A stretch of DNA of 52,085 bases. It comes from Promethearchaeota archaeon (GTDB lineage Archaea > Asgardarchaeota > Lokiarchaeia > Sigyniarchaeales > SOKP01). Shown here in pieces: positions 23,726-39,445 of the stretch. The stretch covers positions 1-52,085 of the forward strand of contig JAGXNO010000025.1 of NCBI GenBank assembly GCA_019894975.1, given 5' to 3'. The translations under genes were made by a program, and so were the position numbers. The notes beneath the pieces were generated by a model. That model saw nothing but the letters and a program-made list of their open reading frames with translations. It was not told where the DNA came from and searched no databases. How positions within the stretch are numbered: position 1 is the stretch's first letter; each line of letters begins with the position of its first letter.

Positions 23726-24289
23726 CTAAAAATTACCACAACCAGAACATTTATTATCAAGGTAAGCAGCACAATTAGCACAAATATTCCCACATTGACT
23801 TTCCATACTTTCTTGACTAAATAGGTTAAGAGGAAGAAATTTAGGTAAAATAAGATCTGAGGCAAAAATGGAAGCTGTATGTAAAATTCCCTTTTTATTT
23901 GTAGGACCACAAAAATTAAGGTATCGATGTAAAACATCAGTATTTTGACCAATAATTCCTAAGATTAAATTATACTGACCAGTCACGGGAGCTAGTAAAA
24001 ATACTCTTGGACAATCCTTATAGGCTTCAATAATATTTTGCACTGCATCATAGTTTTGCATTTCCATTAATAAAAATACAACTTTATATTGAAGTTTAGT
24101 AATATTTGTATTCGCTTGAACTTTAAGAATGCCTTTTTCTTCTAATTTTGTAATCCTTTTTGCAATTCCCGTATGACTCATAGTGTCAGTGCTAGATTTA
24201 AAAATAGTTTTTTCTAAGTTTGTTAAACTCTCACGACCATTGCTAAAGAGTGCTTTTAATATTTGCTTATCAATACCATCTAATTGCAT
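23726..24289 (-). CDS. Lrp/AsnC family transcriptional regulator with Cys-rich C-tail
   Basis: N-terminal LDGIDKQILKAL...RITKLEEKGIL HTH, RAM-domain TGQYNL, and tail CGNICANCAAYLDNKCSGC. Confidence 0.85.
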   Translation of the reverse strand: MQLDGIDKQILKALFSNGRESLTNLEKTIFKSSTDTMSHTGIAKRITKLEEKGILKVQANTNITKLQYKVVFLLMEMQNYDAVQNIIEAYKDCPRVFLLAPVTGQYNLILGIIGQNTDVLHRYLNFCGPTNKKGILHTASIFASDLILPKFLPLNLFSQESMESQCGNICANCAAYLDNKCSGCGNF

Positions 24290-25329: not shown

Positions 25330-25986
25330 ATGAGAAGAAATAAAATTTACATATTTACTATTTTAACAGTATTCTTTGTATCTATTATTGGGGGAGCTTC
25401 TGCTTATCATGAATACATTTATACTTTTGACTACTCTCATACTGCAGGATGTCATAATGGGAACGCTAACGATGGAGAAAGCTCAACGGGAAATTTAACG
25501 ATAACACTTACTCCAAGTGGAACCTTAGAAACCCTACAGGCATTTACCATATCAGTTTTTATACATAATTTTACAGAGCTTGACAATAGTGCTTATCAGA
25601 ATAGAACAACCATTGGAATTTCAAAAGATCTTGGAAATAATTCAGCATTTCTTAGAGATGTAAGTGATGTATCTTTTTCGAGGAGAGTTAAAGTTGATCA
25701 ATATGGAAGTGATTTGACACCTACAGTACTTGGAGCTATAGCACCAGAAACACCAGGAACATATGAACTTGTTATTACAGCAGTCGCAGCGATGAATCAA
25801 TCAGATGCAAGTGCTTATAATTTCACTTTTGCTAAAGGTACTATTAGTGTGACTGTAGTAGCGTCTACGGGAGGAGGAGGTACAATTTCAGGAGGTCTTC
25901 TTACAATTATTATTGGGAGTACTTTTGCTGTATCTACTGTTTTAATAGTAACGATGCGAAAAAGAATAAATAAAAGAGAACTATAA
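25330..25986 (+). CDS. Exported, C-terminally anchored protein with single-Cys HTAGCH motif (putative atypical c-type cytochrome)
   Basis: Signal peptide ending GASA, HTAGCH (the only Cys), beta-rich domain with APETPGTYEL, Gly linker, C-terminal TM and basic tail. Lies just upstream of ccmC. Confidence 0.65.
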   Translation: MRRNKIYIFTILTVFFVSIIGGASAYHEYIYTFDYSHTAGCHNGNANDGESSTGNLTITLTPSGTLETLQAFTISVFIHNFTELDNSAYQNRTTIGISKDLGNNSAFLRDVSDVSFSRRVKVDQYGSDLTPTVLGAIAPETPGTYELVITAVAAMNQSDASAYNFTFAKGTISVTVVASTGGGGTISGGLLTIIIGSTFAVSTVLIVTMRKRINKREL

Positions 25987-26138: not shown

Positions 26139-26870
26139 ATGAATATCCCAAAATTGTTCAAGACTAACTTCTTGTTAATCCTTTCATTAGCAATGTTATT
26201 AATTAACTTGCTTCTTATTGTAATATTAACTTCATTTAACCTTATTGTGTGGGGAAGTCCCAACCGATTAGTATATATAATCTTTTTCTACCATGTTTCT
26301 GGAGCTTGGTTAGCATATCTCTCATTTGGTATTAGTTTATTATTTCATGTTTTATATTTAAAGAAAAGAAACGTTAATTGGAATCGTTTAGGTACAAATA
26401 GTATAATTGTCGGTGTATTTTTTACCGCATTTACATTGGCAACAGGTTCTTTATGGTACAATGCTACTTCTGGAGATTACAATAATATATTCTGGCAGTG
26501 GAGTGATACCAGACAAACTATGACTTTAGTATTATTACTTTCTTATTTAGCTTTTTTAATTTTTAGGAGTATGATTGAGGATAAAGAAAAAAAAGCGAAA
26601 TTGTCCTCAGTATTAGGTATTGCGTTATTCCCTACAGTTCCTCTAAGTTATTTCTCCGCAATAATATTTACTAGCTTACATCCATTAATTAGTCCTACTC
26701 CTGGAGAGACAGGTAATATTTATTGGGATCCAGTGAAAATTTTTATGTTACTTTTTAATTTGATTGCAATTACTATCCTATTCTTCTATGTTATACAAAA
26801 ATTAGGAGAATTAGATAAGGAAAAAGAAAGATTAGATAAAATAATCCAAAAAAGATTAATAGAGGAATAA
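26139..26870 (+). CDS. ccmC: Cytochrome c maturation protein CcmC
   Basis: 6 TM, FFYHVSGAW (His), ATGSLW...FWQWSDTRQT (divergent WWD domain), TSLHP (second His). Confidence 0.88.
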   Translation: MNIPKLFKTNFLLILSLAMLLINLLLIVILTSFNLIVWGSPNRLVYIIFFYHVSGAWLAYLSFGISLLFHVLYLKKRNVNWNRLGTNSIIVGVFFTAFTLATGSLWYNATSGDYNNIFWQWSDTRQTMTLVLLLSYLAFLIFRSMIEDKEKKAKLSSVLGIALFPTVPLSYFSAIIFTSLHPLISPTPGETGNIYWDPVKIFMLLFNLIAITILFFYVIQKLGELDKEKERLDKIIQKRLIEE

Positions 26871-26875
26871 ATAAA

Positions 26876-27028
26876 ATGGCGTTAGAAAATTTATATCCAG
26901 ACTTAGTAACAATAACATTTAGTTATATATTATTTTGGACAGTTATTATATTTCTAATATTATACCCTAAACTTCGCCTAAAAAGAATATTGAAAAGAAT
27001 TAAAAATTTGGAGCAAAATTTAAAGTAA
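26876..27028 (+). CDS. ccmD: CcmD-like small membrane protein (50 aa, not in the ORF track)
   Basis: Hand translation MALENLYPDLVTITFSYILFWTVIIFLILYPKLRLKRILKRIKNLEQNLK*. One TM plus a basic amphipathic tail, tightly packed between ccmC and ccmE. Confidence 0.7.
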   Translation: MALENLYPDLVTITFSYILFWTVIIFLILYPKLRLKRILKRIKNLEQNLK

Positions 27029-27032
27029 TTAG

Positions 27033-27380
27033 GTGTTTATTGTGAAAAAATCTAAAATTATTGCAATTGTAGGAATAGCTATCTCTGTTATAGTAATAGT
27101 TGCAATGCTCACAACAGCAGCTCGTCCATACCTCAAAGTTTCTCAAGTTACCTCAAATCCCGCTAAGTATGATAATAAAGAAATTCAAGTAATAGGTGTT
27201 GTACAAGGATTTGCTGGTAGTGATTTTAATCTAACTGAAAGTGGTAATAGTATTTTTATTGACATAAATGGGTTAACTCCTCCAACTGATTTAGAAAATG
27301 GAATACAAGTAGTAGTAAAAGGAGTATTTAATTCATCTTTAGTTTTAACTGCAAATCAGATCCTTACTCAATGTAGCTAG
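27033..27380 (+). CDS. ccmE: Heme chaperone CcmE, Cys-type, C-terminally truncated
   Basis: N-terminal TM, PYLKVSQV, OB-fold with VVVKG. Ends ANQILTQCS* where homologs have AxExLxKHDENY or KCPSKY. Confidence 0.8.
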   Translation: MFIVKKSKIIAIVGIAISVIVIVAMLTTAARPYLKVSQVTSNPAKYDNKEIQVIGVVQGFAGSDFNLTESGNSIFIDINGLTPPTDLENGIQVVVKGVFNSSLVLTANQILTQCS

Positions 27381-27386
27381 TTTTAA

Positions 27387-28112
27387 CTAGTCATATAAAA
27401 GAAATTCTGAAGTTAATGTCATGATTGAGCTCATTAGTACAATATGAGCACTAAAAAATATTATTTCATAATAAAGCCCTGATATTAGTTCTCCTTCTAA
27501 AATCTTTATATTAATTGATATAATTGGAGTAATTATTGGTAAAATTAAAGGAAACAATAAAATTGGTAAAATAAATGATTTATTTTTTACATACATTGAT
27601 AAAGCAGAGACTAAACTTCCGCAAATAGACAAGTCCAATGTAGGCAACAAAACTCCTAAACCAATAAAAATTAATAGTTGATTCAAGCTGAAATTACTAA
27701 TTGATGGTGCAGAGATAAAAACACTAAAAAGAAAGAGTATTACCTCGACAAAAGTTAATAATATAAAGCAAAAAATGGTTTTACTCATAAGAATTAGATT
27801 AGCAGATACAGGTGATGAAATTAATCCTCCTATTGTTCCAGAATCTTTTTCTTTAACAAAAAGTTTTGCCATAATGTAAACGGTTGTAAAGAAAATAATA
27901 AGCCAGTTTTCAATAACAAAAATTTCTAGGGGCATAATTTGATATTGGGTTCCAAAATTATACACAGAAGAAAATATGAAAATCGAAATTATATCAAAAA
28001 GAAAAATTGAAAATAAATCATTGATTTGACGGAGTTCAGATTTAAGATCTTTATTTAGTATTACCTTAAGTAATTTCAATCTTGATTTTAAGTTTATTTT
28101 CTCATTTTTCAA
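27387..28112 (-). CDS. ccmB: Heme exporter permease CcmB
   Basis: KDLKSELR, FVKEKDSGTI, ILPILLFPLILP, 6 TM. TTG start after GGTGA. Confidence 0.88.
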   Translation of the reverse strand: MKNEKINLKSRLKLLKVILNKDLKSELRQINDLFSIFLFDIISIFIFSSVYNFGTQYQIMPLEIFVIENWLIIFFTTVYIMAKLFVKEKDSGTIGGLISSPVSANLILMSKTIFCFILLTFVEVILFLFSVFISAPSISNFSLNQLLIFIGLGVLLPTLDLSICGSLVSALSMYVKNKSFILPILLFPLILPIITPIISINIKILEGELISGLYYEIIFFSAHIVLMSSIMTLTSEFLLYD

Positions 28113-28124
28113 TATACTATCACC

Positions 28125-28871
28125 TTAAAAATATGATTTAATATGAGTTTCATTAAATTCTTCACTTGCAATGATTTTATTGATTTTTCCTCTTTTTAGA
28201 ATTATTAAATCATCACAAATTTGCTGGAATACATCAATTTTGTGTGTTGTGAGAATTATCGATATGTTGTTATTCTCTTTTAATTCATTAAAGAAATTTA
28301 TCAACATTGTGGTTGCATTGTAATCTAATCCCGAAAAGGGTTCATCCAAAAACAATATGGAGGGCTGATGTATCAAGACTCTAATTAATTCTACTTTTTG
28401 TTTCATTCCATGAGATAAAATTCTAACCGGTTCGTCGATCCAATCTGTTAAGGTGAATTTCTTACAAAGTTGGTCAATTCGGGTTTTTATCTTTTTTTTT
28501 TCAAAATTCAGATGTAAATTAGCATAATATTTTAAATTTTCAAAAATAGTTAATTCTTCAAAAAGAAATGATTCATCTGTAGTAATTCCAATATTTTGTT
28601 TTATGATATTAGAATTTTCCTCGTAATTCATTCCACTAACCAATATATTCCCAAATGTCGGTTTCAGAAGTCCACATAAAATTTTAATTAAAGTTGTTTT
28701 TCCAGCCCCATTTGCTCCTGCAATCCCGAATATTGTGTGCTCTCTAACGTTAAACGAAATTTTTTTTAGTGCAAAGAAATACCCAAATTGTTTAGAGACA
28801 TTATTACACTCTATTATATCTCTATTGGATTTAACCATGGTAATATTATCCAAACTTTTGAAAGAATTCAA
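28125..28871 (-). CDS. ccmA: Heme exporter ABC ATPase CcmA
   Basis: GANGAGKTT, LSHGMKQK, LFLDEPFSGLD. Adjacent to ccmB. The true start may be the ATG at 28838. Confidence 0.82.
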   Translation of the reverse strand: MNSFKSLDNITMVKSNRDIIECNNVSKQFGYFFALKKISFNVREHTIFGIAGANGAGKTTLIKILCGLLKPTFGNILVSGMNYEENSNIIKQNIGITTDESFLFEELTIFENLKYYANLHLNFEKKKIKTRIDQLCKKFTLTDWIDEPVRILSHGMKQKVELIRVLIHQPSILFLDEPFSGLDYNATTMLINFFNELKENNNISIILTTHKIDVFQQICDDLIILKRGKINKIIASEEFNETHIKSYF

Positions 28872-28909: not shown

Positions 28910-31900
28910 TTATTTAAAAAATCGCTTTTTCCTGGATGTTTTTATTATTAGCACTATTCCAGCAATTAAAGTTCCATAAATACTAAATTGAACTACTAAG
29001 TCAGTAATTTCTTTTATGGTCATTGTGGTGACGCTAGTTGATTGCACCGTAACTAAAATATTCTCACTTACCGAATTCCAGTTGTCATTAGTATCTCTTG
29101 CATGAATTGTAAAGGGTATATCTCCTGTTGTACTAGGAACCCAGTTGTCAAATTCCCACGTATTTCCTGCTGTATTTATCATCGTATGATTAGAACCTTC
29201 AAATTCAATAAGAACTTCACTAACATTTGAGAAATCTATAACATTAACTTGAATAAATGTAGATTGTCCCAAATATGTAGGTTCATTTCCCTTTACTAAA
29301 TTGGAAATTGCAGGACCTGATGTATCTATCACTGTAATATTGTTATCTAACGATACGGTGTTGTTAATTAGGTCAATTGCATAGAGAGAATAGATTTTTA
29401 ATCCAGTAGTATATGGAGTCCAATTATTATAACGCCAAGTTATTCCTTCTACAAATGTCATCGTATAATTGATGCCTTCAGTCTCAAATAACACAAGATT
29501 TATTGGAGAAAAATCCAGTATCTCCACTTGTATTATTGCTGTATCTCCTAATTCTAAGGGATCTGAAATCTCAACTAAGTTTACTAAAGTTGGTGCCGTA
29601 GTATCTATAACTGAAATATTGTTTTCTAAATTATTCCAATTATTGTTTATGTCTTTAGCATAAATGACATAATCTTTTACTCCTATAGAGGTTGGAATCC
29701 AGCTACTATATTCCCATATCGCTCCGCCTATATTAGATAGTGTATAATTAATACTATCAATTTCAATTAATACCTGAGTAATAGGTGCTAAATCAATAAC
29801 TTCAATTGAGATTATTTCGGTTTGTCCTAACTCTATTGGATCTGCACTCTCTACTAGATTTGTCAATGAAGGTTGTATTGTGTCTTGTACAGTTATTGAA
29901 TTGGTTAAATAAACCCAATTTCCCTTGGTATCTTCGGCATAAATTGTATACAATTTTAATCCTGTATTAGTGGGTGTCCAACTATTATATTCCCAGGTGT
30001 TTCCCCCGGCATTGGCCATCGTATAATTTACTCCATTAATTTCTATAAGCATTTGATTAATACCAGATAAATCTGTAGCATTGAGTTGAATTGTTTCTAT
30101 TTGCCCTAATTCTAAAGGATCAGCACTCTCAGATAACATAGATAAGGTAGGACCGTTTGTATCCACTACAGTGATATCATTTGTTAAAGAATTCCTATTT
30201 CCTTCATTATCATCAGCGTATATTGTGTAGGATTGTAATCCTGTGCTAGTTGGTGTCCAGCTATCATATTCCCATGTCGATCCCCCGATATTAGACATCG
30301 TATAATTTACACTCTCGATCTCTATTATTACTTGACCAATTCCCGATAAATCTGTAACATTGATTTGAATATTTTCGGTTTGTCCAAACTGTAATGGATC
30401 ATCACTTTCTAATAAGTTAGATAGGATCGGACCTGTTGTATCTACAACAGAAATATCCTCGATTAAAGAGATATCATTATTACTCGAATCACTAACATAA
30501 ATAGTATATGATTTTAAACCGGTAGACGTAGGATTCCAGCTGCTATATTCCCAAGTTACTGTATTTATTTTCGACATTGTATAATTAGTTCCTTCAATTT
30601 CGATTAATACAGAGCTAATCGGAGAATAATCAATAATATCAACCTGAATCATTTCTGTTTGCCCTAATTCTAAGGGATCAGCGTTTTCATACAAGTTTGT
30701 AAGTACGGGTGCCGTTGTATCTATTACTTCAATAAGATCGGATGTAAAATTCCAATTGTTAGAATTATCTTGAATATAGATAAAATATTGATATATTCCA
30801 ACTGTATCTGGTATCCATGTGTCATTTAACCATGTATTCCCACCTATATAATACATTGAATGGTTCACGCTTTCATATTCAATTTTGACTTGGTTGATTC
30901 CTGATAAATCTGTTGTATCTATTGTAATCGCTATTGAGTTTCCCAATTCAAGTGGGTCGACGCTTTTTATTAAATTTCCGAAATTTGGGGGTGTCGTATC
31001 TTGGACTAAAATACTACCACTAATTTGGTTCCAATTATTTAAAGAATCATTAGCATAAACTTTAAATAATTTTATTCCTGTAGTATTCGGTTCCCATATA
31101 TGTTGATACCTTACTCCTCCTATATTTGTCATAGTATAATTTATTCCGCTAATTTCAATAAATACTATACTAACTCCCTCAGAATCACTAATATCAACCT
31201 CAATAACCTCTAATTGACCTAATTCTAGAGGATCCTCACTTTTAGATAAGTTTTGAATTGTTGGTCCAGATGAGATTATAACCTCAATAGAACCATTTGT
31301 CATATTAAGATTATCACTATTATCTACCATGTAAATAGTGTAGTTGAATATATTTTCGGATGCAGGTTGCCAATTTGCCCATCTCCAAGTATCAAATCCC
31401 ATAAAATTCATAGTGTGGTTAACATTATCATATTCAAGAAAAATATTTTTCACTCCTGAACCGGGTGCATCATAAACTTCAATTGAAATTGTTTCATTTT
31501 GCCCTAATGGGAGTGGATCCGCACTTTCAATTAAGAAATTATATGTTGGTGCAGTTGTATCAATTACAGTAATATCGCTACTTATTGAATTCCTATTTCC
31601 TTCATTGTCAGTAACATAAATTGCGTAAGATTTTAATCCTGTGCTAGTGGGCGTCCAGCTATCATATTCCCATGTCGCTCCGCCTATATTAGTCATCGTA
31701 TAATTTACACTCTCAATTTCTATTACTACTTGACCAATCCCCGATAAATCTGTGGCATTGATTTGAATAATTTCCGTATGCCCTAATTCTAATGGATCAA
31801 CGCTCTCGATTAGATTTGAAATGGTTGAAACTGATGTGTCAATTACTGTAATATCACTACTTATTGAATTCTTATTCCCTTCATTGTCAGTAACATAAAT

Positions 31901-33451
31901 TGTGTAGGATTTTAATCCCGTGCTAGTGGGCGTCCAGCTATCATATTCCCATGTCGCTCCACCTATATTAGTCATCGTATAATTTACACTCTCAATCTCT
32001 AATAACACTTGATTAATACCTGACAAATCAGTAGCATTGATTTGAATAACTTCCGTTTGCCCCAATTCTAGAGGATCCGCATTTTCGACTAGACCAAAAA
32101 GATTTGGAGGAATAGTATCCTGTACGGTTATAGAATTCGTTAAGGTGTTCCAATTTCCTTCACTATCGCTAGCATATATTGTATACGATTTTAATCCTGT
32201 GCTAGTAGGAGTCCAGCTATCATATTCCCATAATGATCCACCTACATTAGTCATTGTATAATTTATACTATCAATCTCTATTAATACTTGACTAATAATA
32301 GATAAATCTGTAACATTGATTTGAATAGATTCTGTTTGCTCTAATTCTAATGGATCAGCACTCTCAACTAAGTTAGTTAAAGATGGTAGTACTGTATCTT
32401 GAACTGTGATAGAATCACTCAATGAATTCCAATTTCCATCAGCATCACTTGCATAAATCGAATAAATTTTTAATCCAGTATTTATCGGATTCCAACTATT
32501 ATATTCCCAAATAGTTCCTAGGATATTTGTCATAGTATAATTCACACTTACAATTTCTAGTAATACTTGACTAATGCCCGATAAATCTGTAACATTAATT
32601 TGTATTGTTTCTATTTGTCCTAATTCTAAAGGATCTGCACTTTCAATCAAATTAGATAGTGTCGGAATTGTTGTATCAATTACATTAACTGAACCACTAA
32701 ATGAATTCCAACTTCCCTCTGTATCAGAAGCATAAATTATATAATTTTTTAACCCTGTTATATTTGGGGTCCAATTATATTCATAAGTATTACCAACAGT
32801 GTTAGACATTGTATAGTTTATACTTCCTAATTCAATAAGAACTGTACTTACGGTGGTTTCAGAATCAGTTACATCTACACTGACGGTTTCTTCTTGTCCT
32901 AATTCTAATGGATCCGCACTTTCACCTATATTACTAAATTGAGGTGGATTGTTTAGAGCTTCTATTGTTAATATGAAATCTCCATGTGCAAAAAAGGAAC
33001 TTGATCCCCCCGCTCTATAGATTGCATCAGCATGAAGTGTATAGGATTGTTCAGTGGATGGTGCAGTGACTTGGAAGTTAATAATAATAGAATTTCCAGA
33101 TCCGTCTATTGAAGCAGATTTTTGAGTGGCATCAAAAGCAAAGTTTTTATTATCTCCTCTTCCAGGTGAACCACTTGGAAAGCCCACAGCAATACCACTT
33201 CCCTGAGCCTCTGTGAAGCTATTGATTTGAATACTCACTGTAAATATTTCATTGGGGCTGATTGATGTTCCTGAACTAGATGAAATTGAAATATATCCCG
33301 AACTGCTTTGGGTTATATCTCCATGACAACTAGCGTGTCCCTCTCCTGAAAAATCATCAAATTGTGAAGTTCTGGCTATAGCTAAACCAACAATTGAAGA
33401 AATTATTATGACTGTAATTAAGAAAGCTTTAATTTTTCTATTTATTCTCAT
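28910..33451 (-). CDS. Giant surface protein: signal peptide, single-Cys HASCH head domain, 14 tandem ~93-aa Ig-like repeats, C-terminal TM anchor
   Basis: GEGHASCHG (the only Cys). Repeat consensus ESADPLELGQTExIQINxTDLSGIxQVxIEIxSVNYTMxNIGGxTWEYxSWTPTSTGLKxYxIYAxDxxGNxN. Ends FSIYGTLIAGIVLII-KTSRKKRFFK. Confidence 0.8.
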   Translation of the reverse strand: MRINRKIKAFLITVIIISSIVGLAIARTSQFDDFSGEGHASCHGDITQSSSGYISISSSSGTSISPNEIFTVSIQINSFTEAQGSGIAVGFPSGSPGRGDNKNFAFDATQKSASIDGSGNSIIINFQVTAPSTEQSYTLHADAIYRAGGSSSFFAHGDFILTIEALNNPPQFSNIGESADPLELGQEETVSVDVTDSETTVSTVLIELGSINYTMSNTVGNTYEYNWTPNITGLKNYIIYASDTEGSWNSFSGSVNVIDTTIPTLSNLIESADPLELGQIETIQINVTDLSGISQVLLEIVSVNYTMTNILGTIWEYNSWNPINTGLKIYSIYASDADGNWNSLSDSITVQDTVLPSLTNLVESADPLELEQTESIQINVTDLSIISQVLIEIDSINYTMTNVGGSLWEYDSWTPTSTGLKSYTIYASDSEGNWNTLTNSITVQDTIPPNLFGLVENADPLELGQTEVIQINATDLSGINQVLLEIESVNYTMTNIGGATWEYDSWTPTSTGLKSYTIYVTDNEGNKNSISSDITVIDTSVSTISNLIESVDPLELGHTEIIQINATDLSGIGQVVIEIESVNYTMTNIGGATWEYDSWTPTSTGLKSYAIYVTDNEGNRNSISSDITVIDTTAPTYNFLIESADPLPLGQNETISIEVYDAPGSGVKNIFLEYDNVNHTMNFMGFDTWRWANWQPASENIFNYTIYMVDNSDNLNMTNGSIEVIISSGPTIQNLSKSEDPLELGQLEVIEVDISDSEGVSIVFIEISGINYTMTNIGGVRYQHIWEPNTTGIKLFKVYANDSLNNWNQISGSILVQDTTPPNFGNLIKSVDPLELGNSIAITIDTTDLSGINQVKIEYESVNHSMYYIGGNTWLNDTWIPDTVGIYQYFIYIQDNSNNWNFTSDLIEVIDTTAPVLTNLYENADPLELGQTEMIQVDIIDYSPISSVLIEIEGTNYTMSKINTVTWEYSSWNPTSTGLKSYTIYVSDSSNNDISLIEDISVVDTTGPILSNLLESDDPLQFGQTENIQINVTDLSGIGQVIIEIESVNYTMSNIGGSTWEYDSWTPTSTGLQSYTIYADDNEGNRNSLTNDITVVDTNGPTLSMLSESADPLELGQIETIQLNATDLSGINQMLIEINGVNYTMANAGGNTWEYNSWTPTNTGLKLYTIYAEDTKGNWVYLTNSITVQDTIQPSLTNLVESADPIELGQTEIISIEVIDLAPITQVLIEIDSINYTLSNIGGAIWEYSSWIPTSIGVKDYVIYAKDINNNWNNLENNISVIDTTAPTLVNLVEISDPLELGDTAIIQVEILDFSPINLVLFETEGINYTMTFVEGITWRYNNWTPYTTGLKIYSLYAIDLINNTVSLDNNITVIDTSGPAISNLVKGNEPTYLGQSTFIQVNVIDFSNVSEVLIEFEGSNHTMINTAGNTWEFDNWVPSTTGDIPFTIHARDTNDNWNSVSENILVTVQSTSVTTMTIKEITDLVVQFSIYGTLIAGIVLIIKTSRKKRFFK
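29050..32950 (-). repeat. Intragenic tandem repeat, ~279-bp period, 14 units
   Basis: Near-identical DNA units, e.g. those starting at 31560 and 31839 (279 bp apart). Other units are more diverged. Confidence 0.85.
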
Positions 33452-33693: not shown

Positions 33694-35421
33694 TCAGTCT
33701 TTTTTATGCTCCTTCTTAAGAAAAAAAGTTCTTAAAATTGATGGAATTATTCCTACCAAAAAAAGTATGAACCCGGTTATGAAAAAGATATCTTGAAAAG
33801 TCTCAAACATTGAAGGAATTATTGTTCCCACAAGTATGAACGAGATACCTGAATGAATTATTGTTTTAGAATTTATTCTGAAAAAGTATGCAATTCCTTT
33901 TTTCATTGTAAAATTTCTTGTAAACTTGTAGAATGAAGAAATAATAGAGATAAAGTAAATTACTATTATAGGATTTATCCATATTCCCGAAAAAAACAAA
34001 AATGAAAAAGATAAAACTGATTGAATTGATACACCTAAAATTATTATTAATCCTATCCATTTTAGATCAAAATATTCCCACAGAGAACAAAATACAAGTG
34101 TTACAGCTAAACCAATTGCTAGAATTAAGGAAGTTATAATATAGAAGTCTGGTCCGATGTAAATTTCATTAAGAGGAAAATAAGTTGACAAAATATTAGT
34201 TAATGGGGTAATTAAAAGCCCAAAAATGCATACAAAAGATAAACCAAATAAGAATAAATAACTCAAATAATCAAATAGAAGTTTTTTGTTTCTATATTCT
34301 TCCATCAAATAATCTAGTACAATATATATTACATAAAGCGAAAAGCCTGTCAATATTAATCCCACTAGGACAGTCCATACTATCAACTCAGATCCTCCGG
34401 TGAAAGAATGAATTGGTGATATTCCCCCTCTTGTAACTAAGGTAGAATAGATTATTGATAAGAAAATAATTCCTACATTGATTTTTATTAAATTAGGGTT
34501 TTTCTTTTTGAATATTATAGTATGAAAAAAGGCAGTACTAAAAAGCCATGGAATTAGAGAAACAGTTTCAACAGGATCCCATCCCCAATACCTCCCCCAA
34601 TTTAATGCAATTTTAGCCCAATAAGCTCCTAATCCAATGCTTAAGGTGAGAACTAACCATCCAAATTTTACAGAAAAATTATAGAACTCTTGCTCATACG
34701 AATTCATTAATTCTAAGTTCCGTGTAGTAATTTCAGCAATAGTTATGGTAAAGGGGATCAAAAAAATACCATAAGCAATAAACGTAAAAAATGGGTGCCA
34801 TATCATAAACGGTGACATTAAAATAGGATCTAGACTTGGATGGAGATTTGGATTCCCATTTATGAATGCAGGTGATATATCGAGTTTAAAAGTATTCACT
34901 GATAATAAAATGAACAGGAAAACAATTGATATAACCAATGATATTAGAACAGAACGTATAAAAACCAAGTCTTCCCTATTTTGGTTTTTAATTCTATAAA
35001 AGTAAACTATAACCGAATTGAACATCATCCAAGTCAAAATCGAACCATTCTCTCCTGCCCATATAAAAACAATTTTATAAATAAGAGGAAGTGCGGAATT
35101 GCTGTAGTTCATTACATATACAATTTCAAATATATTATTTAGAAAACAATACATTAAAAGGATAAATACAAATAAGGTCAGAACCATGTTGAGCGTAGAT
35201 AGAAGTTGATAATTCAATTTTTTTACAATTAGTAAGAAAAAATCAACTATCAATACAATAATTAGAATTATAACTAGAGAATTCCCAAGAAAGGATATAA
35301 CAATTATACGGGAGTTAATTACGATTAAATCTAAAATTATGGGAACAATTACAAGCAAACATAACAATAAACTGAGATTTATGATAAGGGTTCTTTTGGA
35401 TGATAGATCCTTGAGCTTCAT
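33694..35421 (-). CDS. ccmF: Cytochrome c heme lyase CcmF
   Basis: WAGENGSILTW, WHPFF, WWD domain GAYWAKIALNWGRYWGWDPVETVSLIPWL, AFFH, RGGISPIHSF, IIHSG. Confidence 0.92.
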   Translation of the reverse strand: MKLKDLSSKRTLIINLSLLLCLLVIVPIILDLIVINSRIIVISFLGNSLVIILIIVLIVDFFLLIVKKLNYQLLSTLNMVLTLFVFILLMYCFLNNIFEIVYVMNYSNSALPLIYKIVFIWAGENGSILTWMMFNSVIVYFYRIKNQNREDLVFIRSVLISLVISIVFLFILLSVNTFKLDISPAFINGNPNLHPSLDPILMSPFMIWHPFFTFIAYGIFLIPFTITIAEITTRNLELMNSYEQEFYNFSVKFGWLVLTLSIGLGAYWAKIALNWGRYWGWDPVETVSLIPWLFSTAFFHTIIFKKKNPNLIKINVGIIFLSIIYSTLVTRGGISPIHSFTGGSELIVWTVLVGLILTGFSLYVIYIVLDYLMEEYRNKKLLFDYLSYLFLFGLSFVCIFGLLITPLTNILSTYFPLNEIYIGPDFYIITSLILAIGLAVTLVFCSLWEYFDLKWIGLIIILGVSIQSVLSFSFLFFSGIWINPIIVIYFISIISSFYKFTRNFTMKKGIAYFFRINSKTIIHSGISFILVGTIIPSMFETFQDIFFITGFILFLVGIIPSILRTFFLKKEHKKD

Positions 35422-35594: not shown

Positions 35595-36479
35595 TTGGAA
35601 AGTAAAATGAAAAAGAAAACTCTCATCCTATTCATAAGCATTATCGGTTTATTATCTATATCATTATTAATCTATGGAACTGGAAGACCCAATTATGGTG
35701 ATACTCATGATTCAAGCGGTTGTCATGATAACTTTGGAGGGTACACAATTTCAAGCACCGTACCAGTAACAACTACAGTAAATAATGTCTCATACACTAT
35801 ATTTAACGTAACGGCTACAGGATCAAACTTATTTGTACAGGCATACCCCGGAGCTAATGATAATGATAAATTTATTATCCTCCCAACATCTAGTAGAATA
35901 GTTGATGCCTCAGGAGATGATTTAGATCCTAATCCTAATGCGATTACTATTGCATTTAATGTCACACCTACCTTAGTACAGAATTCCTATACTCTTTTTA
36001 TATTAGCAGGAAATAATTTGACTGGCAGTCCTCCGTTTGCTTATGTTGAAATTATAATTGGAGCCCCTCCTAAATTTGATCTATTATCTAAAATATATGA
36101 TCATTTAGGCTTGTATTTAGGATTACCCGCTTTATTATTAATATCAATTGCTACAGTTCTAGTACTGGTAAATGAAAATAAATTCGTGAAAGTGCATGGT
36201 ATTTTATCAGGGAGTGCTTGGATATTAACTGCAATCAATTTATCTGCAGCGCTTATAAAAATATCACCTAATGCTTGGTTCAGTGTTTATCCCCTTATTT
36301 ATCATGTTCCTCATATAATTTTGGGATTTATAGGTTTAATTTCAGGATTTCTTAGCATGTTTTTTGGAATCGCAGCAGAAAGAAAACCTGCTAAAATAAC
36401 GGGTTACATTGCATTATTAAGTTGGTGGGCTGCTTTCTTTTTAGGATATTTTCTAAATAACAATCTTTTATTACTATAA
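35595..36479 (+). CDS. Exported single-Cys (HDSSGCH) domain fused to a cytochrome b561-like membrane domain
   Basis: Signal anchor, HDSSGCH (the only Cys), beta-rich domain, then 4 TM with His in DHLG, KVHGILS and YHVPHIILG. ATG at 35607 is possible. Confidence 0.65.
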   Translation: MESKMKKKTLILFISIIGLLSISLLIYGTGRPNYGDTHDSSGCHDNFGGYTISSTVPVTTTVNNVSYTIFNVTATGSNLFVQAYPGANDNDKFIILPTSSRIVDASGDDLDPNPNAITIAFNVTPTLVQNSYTLFILAGNNLTGSPPFAYVEIIIGAPPKFDLLSKIYDHLGLYLGLPALLLISIATVLVLVNENKFVKVHGILSGSAWILTAINLSAALIKISPNAWFSVYPLIYHVPHIILGFIGLISGFLSMFFGIAAERKPAKITGYIALLSWWAAFFLGYFLNNNLLLL

Positions 36480-36500: not shown

Positions 36501-37982
36501 TTGAACCAATCTAACAATAGTAAAGTAGAAAACCGAACAATAAAAAAAATAGGGAAACAAGATCTTGAGAGTCAATTTTTAGAATTTATATCTTCATATC
36601 ATGTAAGCACTAATCCTTATGAACTTGAATCCGCTTCTGCAGATCTGACGTCTCTACCCTCGTATCATTATAAATTTAAAAAGCAATATCTTGCTAGTCA
36701 TATTATCCGTCCAGCTAATGTTAACGAACTTTCACGAGCGATTAAAAAGTGTAGAGAACGTAATATTCCTGTTACGATTAGAGCTGCAGGGACTTCTTGT
36801 TTTTCTTCAGCGACACCTTCAAAAGGAGGTGTTATTATAGACATGCGTAGATTAAATAAAGTCCTTGAAGTAAACAAAGAAAAAATGATTGTTAAGGTTG
36901 AAAGTGGAATTTCTTGGTTAAATTTAATAGAAGCACTAGCAGATTATGGACTTGAGCCAAAAACTTTTCCAACCAGTTTCAAAACATCCTGTGTAGGAGG
37001 TTTTATTGCAACTCCAGGAAAAGCGGGAATAGGAGTAGTAAAATATGGACCAATGGAAGATTCGATTAATTCATTAGATTTTGTTAAACCTGATGGATCT
37101 ATAGTTAAGATTTTAAAAGATTCTAACGACGAAATTACTTTAAAAGATATTATTGGAACTTACGGTATATACGGAGCAATTTCAAGTGTTGAATTGTCTG
37201 TGACGACGCTTAAAACATCATTAGAGATAATAGGTTATGGTTTTGATTCAATAGGGCAAGCCTTTAATTTTTATGAAAAACTCAAGGTTGAACTCCCAAA
37301 TAAACCTTTATTTCTCTCAATTTCAGAGAGAGATTTCGAAAAATATTCGCATATAAATTTCCCAGAACGTGATTGGTTAGTCTGGGCAGCTTTTTATGAC
37401 GATCCTGAAGCAACTTCAAAGAGTGTATCAGATGTTAAATATTTTGCCTCGAAAATGAACGCTTTCGAAGTAGATAGTTCGTATTTAAAAGAAAAGTGGC
37501 GTGATATAAGCGATGCTGAAGTATCAATTGGTTTATCAGCGAGAAATTTAATATTTCAAGAATATTGGATTTCCGATATGAGATTAGAGAGTTTTATAGA
37601 TTATTATGTAAAAGAAAGGAGGAAATATAAATTCCCCACTGCTTCCTATGCTATTTCGGGTGAAAAAGGATGGACTAGGGTAAAGATCTTTGGACTTACG
37701 GACATTAGTAAACCACGAGAATTTTTCACAGTAAAAGCTTTTTTACATGATTTATCTGTTAAAGCATTTACCCAAGGAGATAGGCTCTATACTATCGGGA
37801 TAGTTAACTCCTTTTACCTCATCAAGTATAAACCAGAAGAGGTAATGAAATGGAAGATTCTAAAGGATAAATTAGATCCAAAAGATTTATTTAATTCATA
37901 TCGATTAACTAAAGCAAGAATGAAATTTTGGAGGGTTGCTTTGCTGTTTAACACAGCGAAAATATTATACAAAATTTTTTAA
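36501..37982 (+). CDS. FAD-linked oxidoreductase (GlcD/D-lactate dehydrogenase-like, VAO/PCMH fold)
   Basis: IIRPANVNE, VTIRAAGTS, GGVIIDMRRLN, SCVGGFIAT, GTYGIYGAI, and C-terminal LKDKLDPKDLFN. Confidence 0.82.
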   Translation: MNQSNNSKVENRTIKKIGKQDLESQFLEFISSYHVSTNPYELESASADLTSLPSYHYKFKKQYLASHIIRPANVNELSRAIKKCRERNIPVTIRAAGTSCFSSATPSKGGVIIDMRRLNKVLEVNKEKMIVKVESGISWLNLIEALADYGLEPKTFPTSFKTSCVGGFIATPGKAGIGVVKYGPMEDSINSLDFVKPDGSIVKILKDSNDEITLKDIIGTYGIYGAISSVELSVTTLKTSLEIIGYGFDSIGQAFNFYEKLKVELPNKPLFLSISERDFEKYSHINFPERDWLVWAAFYDDPEATSKSVSDVKYFASKMNAFEVDSSYLKEKWRDISDAEVSIGLSARNLIFQEYWISDMRLESFIDYYVKERRKYKFPTASYAISGEKGWTRVKIFGLTDISKPREFFTVKAFLHDLSVKAFTQGDRLYTIGIVNSFYLIKYKPEEVMKWKILKDKLDPKDLFNSYRLTKARMKFWRVALLFNTAKILYKIF

Positions 37983-38104
37983 TGAGAATGGTTTTAATAC
38001 TAAAATCAAATCAATGGATTGAGGTATAATATATAACAATTAGATTTAATATAAAATAATATATGGTTTCAATAGAAAAAGTACGAAAAAAGAGATAATG
38101 ATAA

Positions 38105-39445
38105 ATGAGTGAAGGTAAAGAAAAAGAAGATCTAAAAAATGTTGTTACTACTGGGCCGCCTGTAGCGGGACTTGTATCTCCTTCAAGAGATAACCTCAGA
38201 GAACCTTCAGATGAGTTTAAAAACAAACATTCTTATGAGCGTTGTACTCATTGTGGGTATTGTCGTCATGTTTGTAAGGTGTATAATACTTCATGGAGCG
38301 AATCTGATTATGCTGGGGGTAGGAACAGAATTATCAAAGCATTAGATCGTGGAGATATAAAATTCAAGAAGGATGATATTATTCCTCCAGTTTTTCGTTG
38401 TATGTTGTGTGGTAATTGCAAAGTTGTATGTCCAGTTGGAGTTGACACTTTAAGTGTTTTTCAAAACTTTCGGAAAGAAGTTGTAAAAAGGGGAGCAATG
38501 CCAGAAAAATTAAAAATGATGAAAAGCTCAATTATGGAAAATAATAACCCATTCCTTGAAAAACACGTTGATAGATTTAATTGGTGTGATTCTTGTGAGG
38601 AAGGAGCTAAGGCTTATGAACGAGCAAAACAGAGAATTACCGCTAAAGAAGAAGAAACTCCTTATTCTGTTGGTTATTTTATGGGTTGTACATCTTCATA
38701 TAGAAACAAAGAACTTGTGTCGGCGACAAGTCAAGTGTTAGATAAATTGGGAGTTGAATTCGTTCTTTTTCCTGAAGAAAAGTGTTGTGGTTCTGTTTTA
38801 TTTCGAACTGGATTAGAAGAAGATGCAAATAAACTTGTAAAGAGTAATACTGAGATGATTCGTAAAAGTGGTGTAAAAGAGGTTGTTTTTTCATGTTCTG
38901 GGTGTTTTTCGACTTTTAATCTAGAGTATTCGAGAATTGCAGATTATAATTTAGGATTTGATCTTTACCATTTAACTCAGTATGCTTTAAAGATTGTAAA
39001 AGAAAAAAACCTAAAAATTAGATATACAAAACGATCAAAGGAAGATCCCTTACTCATAACATATCATGACCCTTGTCATTTAGGTAGATATTGTGGGGTT
39101 TACGAAGAACCTAGGGAGCTTATTCGAATGATTGAAGGAGTAAAATTATTTGAAATGAAGCATAATAAAGATATGGCTTGGTGCTGTGGAGCTGGAGGCG
39201 GAGTGAAAGCATTATATGGTGATATAGCAGCTGAGGTTGGTAGGGATAGGATAACTGAGACTCGTGCTTGTATGGTCCGAATACGCGAAGACCGTCTAAA
39301 AGAAGCATTAGAAACGCCTGCGGAAGTTCTTGTTAGCTCTTGCGTATTCTGCAAAAACAATTTATTTCAAGTTGCAAATGAAGATAACTCACCAATTAAA
39401 GTTATGGATATTTCTCAGCTTCTACTCGATTGTGAATTTTATTAG
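38105..39445 (+). CDS. Fe-S oxidoreductase, HdrD/GlcF-like (two [4Fe-4S] plus two CCG domains)
   Basis: CTHCGYCRHVC, CMLCGNCKVVCP, YFMGC...CCG...CSGC, YHDPCHLGR...CCG...CVFC. Confidence 0.88.
   Translation: MSEGKEKEDLKNVVTTGPPVAGLVSPSRDNLREPSDEFKNKHSYERCTHCGYCRHVCKVYNTSWSESDYAGGRNRIIKALDRGDIKFKKDDIIPPVFRCMLCGNCKVVCPVGVDTLSVFQNFRKEVVKRGAMPEKLKMMKSSIMENNNPFLEKHVDRFNWCDSCEEGAKAYERAKQRITAKEEETPYSVGYFMGCTSSYRNKELVSATSQVLDKLGVEFVLFPEEKCCGSVLFRTGLEEDANKLVKSNTEMIRKSGVKEVVFSCSGCFSTFNLEYSRIADYNLGFDLYHLTQYALKIVKEKNLKIRYTKRSKEDPLLITYHDPCHLGRYCGVYEEPRELIRMIEGVKLFEMKHNKDMAWCCGAGGGVKALYGDIAAEVGRDRITETRACMVRIREDRLKEALETPAEVLVSSCVFCKNNLFQVANEDNSPIKVMDISQLLLDCEFY

Follow-up and report, generated by a model that had tools for sequence, protein, structure and literature searches.

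In System I*, the variant of cytochrome c maturation (Ccm) described from archaea and Desulfovibrio, the CcmE protein carries a cysteine in place of histidine, usually within a CPSKY motif that includes a tyrosine (PMC3601427). Haem held through one thioether cysteine occurs in the mitochondrial cytochromes c and c1 of Euglenozoa, and cytochrome f provides a membrane-anchored c-type cytochrome built on a beta-sandwich. Long surface proteins in which tandem immunoglobulin (Ig)-like domains form a rod bearing an N-terminal head make up the bacterial periscope proteins and giant adhesins, and archaeal c-type cytochromes displayed for extracellular electron exchange are represented by the S-layer multihaem cytochromes of anaerobic methanotrophic archaea (ANME) and Ferroglobus. 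The subject of this report is a gene in a stretch of 52,085 nucleotides from a Promethearchaeota archaeon (GTDB lineage Archaea; Asgardarchaeota; Lokiarchaeia; Sigyniarchaeales; SOKP01), namely positions 1 to 52,085 of the forward strand of contig JAGXNO010000025.1 in NCBI GenBank assembly GCA_019894975.1, referred to below as the window. The gene lies among ccm genes and encodes a 1513-residue protein with a previously undescribed head domain bearing a Cys-His pair (the xCH head), a stalk of 14 Ig-like repeats and a C-terminal transmembrane (TM) anchor.

The interpretation favoured here, held with slightly better than even confidence, is that the head is a beta-sandwich c-type haem domain, in most family members minus the first thioether cysteine and matured by a derivative of System I*, and that the stalked protein is a long-reach redox paralogue. 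What the analysis shows directly is the architecture, the head family, the conserved motif, its association with ccm genes, and a generic stalk whose repeat number varies; we infer haem attachment, a redox function and its direction. To our knowledge, most accounts of Asgard archaea other than Heimdallarchaeia portray them as cytochrome-free, since surveys count CxxCH motifs; one-cysteine cytochromes escape the usual CxxCH screens.

Results

Architecture of the stalked protein

The window represents one contig of a 3.9 Mb host genome (31.6% GC, 95% complete). The gene and its parts are as follows.

28910..33451, minus strand: whole gene, 1513 aa, comprising signal peptide, xCH head, 14 Ig-like repeats and C-terminal TM anchor
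33374..33451, minus strand: signal peptide, aa 1-26, with an A-x-A cleavage-type site kept in orthologues (sequences read directly)
32945..33373, minus strand: head domain, aa 27-169, a beta-sandwich of a new Asgard family (AlphaFold2 (AF2) model, profile search, no Pfam family)
33323..33337, minus strand: H39-A-S-C42-H43, putative single-cysteine haem c site (conservation across aligned members)
29036..32944, minus strand: 14 tandem 93-aa Ig-like (Big_7-type) repeats, aa 170-1472 (Tandem Repeats Finder (TRF), Pfam, AF2, Foldseek)
28943..28999, minus strand: C-terminal TM helix, about aa 1485-1503 (sequence)

The layout given in the original prediction, a signal peptide followed by a HASCH head, 14 repeats of about 93 residues and a TM anchor, was confirmed by reading of the sequence, and Pfam annotation of the neighbours likewise confirmed the position of the gene between ccmF and ccmA, all on the minus strand, with ccmF upstream and ccmA then ccmB downstream. 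The N-terminus opens with a basic n-region, continues with a hydrophobic core of 18 residues and has A-I-A as its cleavage-type site, and orthologues retain an A/V-x-A cleavage pattern. A K/R-rich tail of 10 residues (aa 1504-1513), eight of which are K/R, F or S, follows the TM helix. Cys42, in the context G-E-G-H-A-S-C-H-G, is the sole cysteine of the 1513 residues; a lipobox role for it was dismissed, as it lies about 15 residues beyond the hydrophobic core. From its sequence, the product is best read as a cell-surface glycoprotein of a low-GC Loki-type archaeon.

A new head family with a conserved Cys-His motif

The window encodes two further xCH proteins, of 218 and 294 residues, and the three heads align along their whole length, showing that the stalked head is kin to both other xCH domains of the locus as earlier proposed. 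The head of the 218-aa protein matched the stalked head by BLASTP (E 8e-6), and the shorter protein proved to be, as anticipated, a stalkless paralogue of the same plan. The head comprises approximately 143 residues in the stalked protein, and an AF2 model based on an alignment of 71 sequences showed a beta-sandwich of seven strands with one 4-residue helix (predicted local distance difference test (pLDDT) 92.5), the first 20 residues, which bear the motif, being modelled at lower confidence (pLDDT 76-80). Pfam contained no family for any of the three heads. When the model was compared with known structures using Foldseek and VIA-align, generic macroglobulin, Ig, CARDB and PKD sandwiches were retrieved, the best being a complement C3 macroglobulin domain (Z 10.3). 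Cytochrome f (2jxm_B) aligned over 116 residues (Z 7.5, root-mean-square deviation 3.6), tied with dozens of unrelated sandwiches. A search of PDB sequences with the head profile produced only a chance-level match to the F1 capsule antigen (E 0.003 over 45 residues), and the ESM Atlas gave sub-threshold leads only ('Reelin domain' clusters in Thermoplasmatota, score 0.86). A profile built from the three paralogues recovered 93 proteins among 1.84 billion representatives, and all named members are from Asgard archaea (Promethearchaeota, Thor-, Hel- and Kariarchaeaceae labels). No description of the family was found in literature searches; a ccm-linked novel family reported previously (PMC10849945) was dismissed as a match, being a ccmD-like gene of another class.

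Among the 71 aligned members the motif cysteine is invariant and is followed by histidine in 69. The stalked protein itself has no classical CxxCH (H-A-S-C-H, with one Cys) and conforms to the XXXCH form (C42-H43, no upstream Cys). In 84 extracted domains the motif was H-x(1-6)-C-H in 62, CxxCH in 5, CxCH in 7 and Cx4CH in 2, all at the same place. In most members 12-20 residues separate the signal peptide's hydrophobic core from the Cys-His pair, which in the family lies about 15 residues beyond the signal peptide and in the stalked protein about 16 residues from the predicted mature N-terminus. The other strongly conserved positions of the head, an F-x-G before the motif, D-N-x-x-F and T-A-P, are all hydrophobic or structural. 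In an unrooted family tree (no outgroup and no support values; no direction of the Cys-to-His change is claimed), the two-cysteine forms constitute one clade and several scattered singletons, indicating that His and Cys have been swapped more than once at that position. Because the Cys-His pair is near-invariant, some relatives have CxxCH in its place and the association with ccm genes is strict (see below), the head domain is probably a haem site as judged from sequence. The putative haem head of the original prediction thus stands as a probable site, by motif and by ccm linkage, at which haem binding is inferred.

A more distant xCH-TM protein, of Asgard family f31 (G327:C4, L030 7492-8730), has C-T-A-S-P-C-H (Cx4CH) in place of H-x(2-4)-C-H. 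Its gene adjoins FAD and CCG protein genes, and a CcmF-like gene lies approximately 18 kb away on the same contig.

Distribution and linkage to ccm genes

The head family was present in 50 of 400 genomes of the phylum. Within the host family ccmF was carried by 28 of 135 genomes, and all other genomes with a close CcmF (27 of 27) also carried the head family, on the same contigs; in 2 more genomes heads were found and CcmF was not detected with this CcmF query. Nine relatives from two genera share, with small rearrangements, the gene order HTH / short xCH / ccmC / ccmD-like / ccmE / ccmB-ccmA / stalked xCH / ccmF / xCH-4TM / FAD / CCG, where HTH denotes a helix-turn-helix protein and the short xCH gene is present in one or two copies. 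In the host genome no open reading frame (ORF) of at least 50 aa had an N-terminal hydrophobic stretch ahead of CxxCH. A scan for a hydrophobic stretch with an N-terminal Cys-His gave the three genes in the window as the only plausible candidates, the other 12 matches being short ORFs or a membrane protein.

This linkage bears on a distinctly unlikely alternative, in which the Cys-His pair together with His39 binds Cu, Zn or Fe, or is structural, and the protein is an ordinary adhesin or coat protein sharing the ccm regulon. An H-x-x-C-H motif could chelate metal, the fold of the head is generic and Ig/macroglobulin-like, and the same stalk bears many unrelated heads (below). However, the head family lies beside ccm genes in each of the 27 other CcmF-bearing family genomes, the Ccm system would be left without any client, some relatives show a classical CxxCH at that place, and anything from 1 to 6 residues may separate His39 from the Cys, which argues against a fixed chelate.

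A fusion protein of 815 aa (P0133) combines an xCH head, an Ig domain, one TM helix, a Fer4 domain and two CCG domains. Such xCH-Fer4-CCG fusions tie the head family to the iron-sulfur dehydrogenase encoded next to the cluster. P0133 and a second metagenomic protein (P0147, 436 aa) were both observed to be xCH-TM fusions to a cytoplasmic Fer4 and CCG (HdrD/GlcF-like) module.

The Ig-like stalk is a generic display module of variable length

The 14 repeat anchors are spaced by 92-95 residues, mostly 93 (positions 178, 271, ... 1388), and the repeats align in register with 37-57% protein identity to repeat 1 and 37-69% among themselves. At the DNA level TRF detected a period of 279 nt, the best run showing 75-78% matches over 1.8-3.9 copies. 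The repeat corresponds to Pfam PF17957 (Big_7; 47.1 bits against a gathering cut-off of 24.1), and an AF2 model of a repeat pair was all beta, with two seven-stranded domains separated by a linker of about 5 residues (pLDDT 95.5). The top Foldseek matches of the pair were tandem Ig domains of SiiE, RTX adhesin, Bap and SraP adhesins together with titin. The pair model and these adhesin-extender matches support the proposal that the repeats are Ig-like beads, and the matches and the short 5-residue linkers suggest rod-like behaviour; at 3.5-4 nm per domain the stalk is estimated to be roughly 50 nm long. An S-layer lattice is unsupported, as the repeat pair resembles adhesin extenders and cultured Loki has no ordered S-layer; its cell envelope bears many protrusions (PMC9834061). 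By analogy, a generic long stalk would fit an S-layer-free, protrusion-rich envelope of this kind.

The repeats contain no Cys and no conserved His, and with one Cys in the whole protein the possibility of a haem wire was dismissed, in agreement with the original prediction. The many N-x-S/T sequons it remarked on number 36, and 12 of the 14 repeats share an N-[YH]-[TS] sequon at repeat position 42; as a total count, however, they are no significant excess over composition shuffles (29.3 +/- 4.6, p about 0.09), and enrichment was dismissed.

Comparison of repeat number across relatives, as earlier suggested, revealed a range from 7 to 16: orthologues of 862, 953-958, 1143, 1327, 1513 and 1705 aa have 7, 8, 10, 12, 14 and 16 repeats, respectively, a variation between species among full-length orthologues that are all labelled Asgard metagenome-assembled genomes. 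The same 93-aa repeat also bears DUF2341/LamG, S8 peptidase, NosD beta-helix, GH16 and PQQ-propeller heads in Asgard surface proteins, indicating that the stalk is a generic display module and not specific to the xCH head. In 2 related genomes the head is borne on a different, non-homologous stalk of 798-876 aa.

Repeats 6-8 (31265-30710 region) were individually recognisable in every orthologue regardless of the total number of repeats, for example by a P-L-P-L-G-Q-N-E-T / P-G-S-G-V-K variant, indicating that gain and loss affect generic repeats flanking a fixed core. The 93-aa repeat appears to be a shared archaeal 'periscope' module.

The Ccm cluster and neighbouring genes

The remaining genes of the cluster are as follows.

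33694..35421, minus strand: ccmF, 575 aa (PF01578; co-occurs with the head family)
28125..28871, minus strand: ccmA (ABC ATPase)
27387..28112, minus strand: ccmB (PF03379)
27033..27380, plus strand: ccmE variant ending T-Q-C-S-stop, the usual Tyr missing (PF03100 above cut-off)
26876..27028, plus strand: ccmD-like 50-aa ORF with one TM helix, between ccmC and ccmE (kept in 9 relatives)
26139..26870, plus strand: ccmC (PF01578)
25330..25986, plus strand: stalkless paralogue, 218 aa, with signal peptide, H-T-A-G-C-H head and TM anchor
35595..36479, plus strand: paralogue, 294 aa, with H-D-S-S-G-C-H head and a 4-TM module with three conserved His
36501..39445, plus strand: GlcD-like FAD protein and GlcF/HdrD-like Fer4+CCG protein, conserved beside the cluster

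In CcmE, Cys replaces the haem-binding His and is the penultimate residue, the stop following one residue on. This Q-C-S ending is identical in 9 relatives from two genera and so represents a conserved variant and not a truncation artefact; a phmmer search of PDB with CcmE yielded nothing useful. The 50-aa ORF is probably CcmD. CcmH (PF03918) was not found in the 95%-complete host genome, which fits a client motif unable to form a disulfide. The HdrD/GlcF-like CCG protein itself is encoded at 38105-39445, and the wider neighbourhood contains a [NiFe] hydrogenase, HdrBC-like genes, hypE, hypD and hypF.

The membrane His residues of the 294-aa xCH-4TM protein, in D-H-L-G, K-V-H-G and P-H-I, are kept across 17 relatives, and the module has no Pfam family; the sequence suggests that they form a haem b site. 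At the edge of the cluster a 187-aa Lrp/AsnC-type HTH protein (23726-24289, minus strand) has a C-terminal tail that is rich in Cys and closes with a conserved K-C-x-G-C-G-x-F, with three further Cys (C-x3-C-x2-C) just upstream in the protein from the window. The HTH gene is conserved at this position in the nine relatives, often in two copies, and its product is a candidate metal- or redox-sensing regulator.

Haem supply in the host family

The sole HemB-positive genome of the host family has a siroheme-route haem operon approximately 9 kb from its xCH/ccm cluster (G227:C2:46000-64500), containing HemA, L, B, C, CobA-HemD and AhbA/B-like genes and a radical SAM gene. HemB was absent from the other 134 of the 135 genomes, including closed, 100%-complete ccmF carriers, and neither HemB nor HemC was found in the 95%-complete host genome. 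Haem is therefore probably scavenged from outside. Gene content thus suggests that a haem-attachment system exists alongside haem auxotrophy: the cluster is linked to haem, yet most of its owners would have to obtain haem externally.

These data give weight to haem capture, one of four roles offered by the original prediction for the stalked protein alongside a redox shuttle, a sensor and partner contact, because the lineage lacks haem synthesis. The stalked head would here collect haem beyond the coat, taking it from partners or the environment, and the Ccm-like genes would handle scavenged haem at the outer face. Besides the missing HemB and HemC, the behaviour of the stalked form as an optional accessory with tunable reach is as expected for such a role. 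Nevertheless it is considered unlikely, since the motif and the covalent CxxCH site are homologous, the motif is linked to the haem lyase CcmF, and covalent fixation is unsuited to a carrier. Neither Pfam nor fold searches revealed similarity to NEAT, HasA or HmuY haemophores, and there is no evident route by which haem would travel back to the cell. Haem-auxotrophic bacteria such as Haemophilus, moreover, run Ccm for ordinary cytochromes.

Discussion

A model of the putative stalked haem protein

The favoured interpretation of the head as a one-cysteine c-type haem domain suggests the following sequence of events. Sec export and cleavage of the signal peptide would leave the N-terminal segment near the membrane, where a variant System I, consisting of CcmA, B, C, the CcmD-like peptide, CcmE ending in Q-C-S and CcmF, would link one haem to Cys42 by a single thioether bond, His43 serving as proximal ligand of the iron. 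With the motif so close to the signal peptide, CcmF could do its work while the N-terminus remains at the membrane and the long stalk has yet to fold. In the mature protein the haem segment would cap a beta-sandwich of approximately 120 residues, the 14 Ig-like repeats would extend it outwards, and the C-terminal helix would anchor it in the single membrane. The three paralogues (long-reach stalked, short anchored and His-bearing 4-TM fusion), together with the adjoining GlcD/GlcF-like flavo-iron-sulfur dehydrogenase, most likely form an outward electron path, in which the stalked haem would give or take electrons outside the surface coat, dealing with a partner cell, with a particle or with another protrusion.

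Several observations weigh against this model. The System I of E. coli handles single-cysteine XXXCH variants very poorly (PMC3268396), which also speaks for a non-haem role of the motif. No haem protein stood above the generic sandwiches in the Foldseek and VIA-align searches with the head, and apart from His39, present in 58 of the 71 aligned members, the head offers no conserved Met, Lys or second His that could act as distal ligand. Haem on head-family members is predicted from sequence context, and the failure to find HemB and HemC in the host genome, or HemB in nearly all of its family, counts against a haem protein as well. The stalked form is an accessory, since several relatives possess the cluster but no stalked member. 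Finally, a single haem would be positioned approximately 50 nm out, and a cofactor-free stalk cannot wire it to the membrane, leaving the electron path to the head unexplained; the most plausible way out appears to be that electrons pass in trans, to or from a partner cell or a second protrusion.

An improbable, more speculative variant of the covalent model is that H-x(1-6)-C-H represents a new mode of attachment, combining a Cys thioether with a His-vinyl bond, and that the stalked form takes haem or electrons from a partner in haem-auxotrophic Asgards. His-vinyl haem bonds are known from CcmE His130 and from cyanobacterial GlbN, and the idea was prompted by the repeated interchange of His and the first Cys over the family tree. 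Were it true, the protein would constitute a physical redox or cofactor link between syntrophic partner cells. The remaining role, that of a redox or gas sensor signalling across the membrane, is very improbable, for although a solvent-exposed haem without a conserved sixth ligand could bind small ligands, the cytoplasmic tail of about 10 residues has no output domain, the cluster has no conserved signalling gene except Lrp-type HTH proteins with a Cys-rich tail of their own, and a 50-nm stalk would be a poor signal conduit.

If the haem-domain model is correct, syntrophic relatives of eukaryotes own an unrecognised extracellular haem or redox apparatus while depending on the haem of others, and System I has adapted in nature to clients with one cysteine, on which its E. 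coli counterpart works poorly. The stalked protein would also offer a molecular identity for some of the long surface densities seen in Loki by cryo-electron tomography.

Comparison with known systems

The closest counterpart of the maturation genes is System I* of archaea and Desulfovibrio. As in that system, CcmA, B, C, E and F are present and CcmE has Cys for His (PMC3601427), CcmH and CcmG were not found, and the client motif follows closely on the signal peptide. The Asgard system departs from it in that its clients are without the first of the two CxxCH cysteines, its host cannot make haem, and its CcmE ends in Q-C-S-stop, missing the Tyr of CPSKY/CxxxY.

With regard to the client, the (A/F)xxCH cytochromes c and c1 of Euglenozoan mitochondria similarly have one thioether Cys and a His ligand. 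These are, however, alpha-helical class I proteins served by another maturation system (PMC8262978), whereas the Asgard head is a beta-sandwich, its His usually fills the place of the lost Cys, and its genes lie in a Ccm cluster. Cytochrome f, too, is a beta-sandwich protein anchored by a C-terminal TM segment, and its haem motif lies about 20 residues into the mature chain, but it has CxxCH, is a member of the b6f complex, has no stalk and shows no sequence similarity to the Asgard head. Its sixth haem ligand is the N-terminal alpha-amino group; the feature of the Asgard family that bears on such a ligand is the conserved distance between signal peptide and motif. The ANME/Ferroglobus-type S-layer multihaem cytochromes are likewise archaeal c-type cytochromes displayed for extracellular electron exchange (PMC9012536); in these, many CxxCH haems form a wire, in contrast to the one putative haem and the cofactor-free stalk of the Asgard protein.

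In overall plan the protein matches the periscope proteins and giant adhesins (SasG, Rib, SiiE, RTX), which have an N-terminal head, a tandem Ig-like rod and a C-terminal anchor (PMC9704523) and whose repeat number varies among relatives, as it does here between species. That bacterial class is defined by near-identical repeats, whereas the Asgard repeats are no more than 69% identical to one another. The periscope design of variable-length Ig stalks thus exists in archaea, in a membrane-anchored form whose head is a putative redox cofactor domain and not an adhesin.

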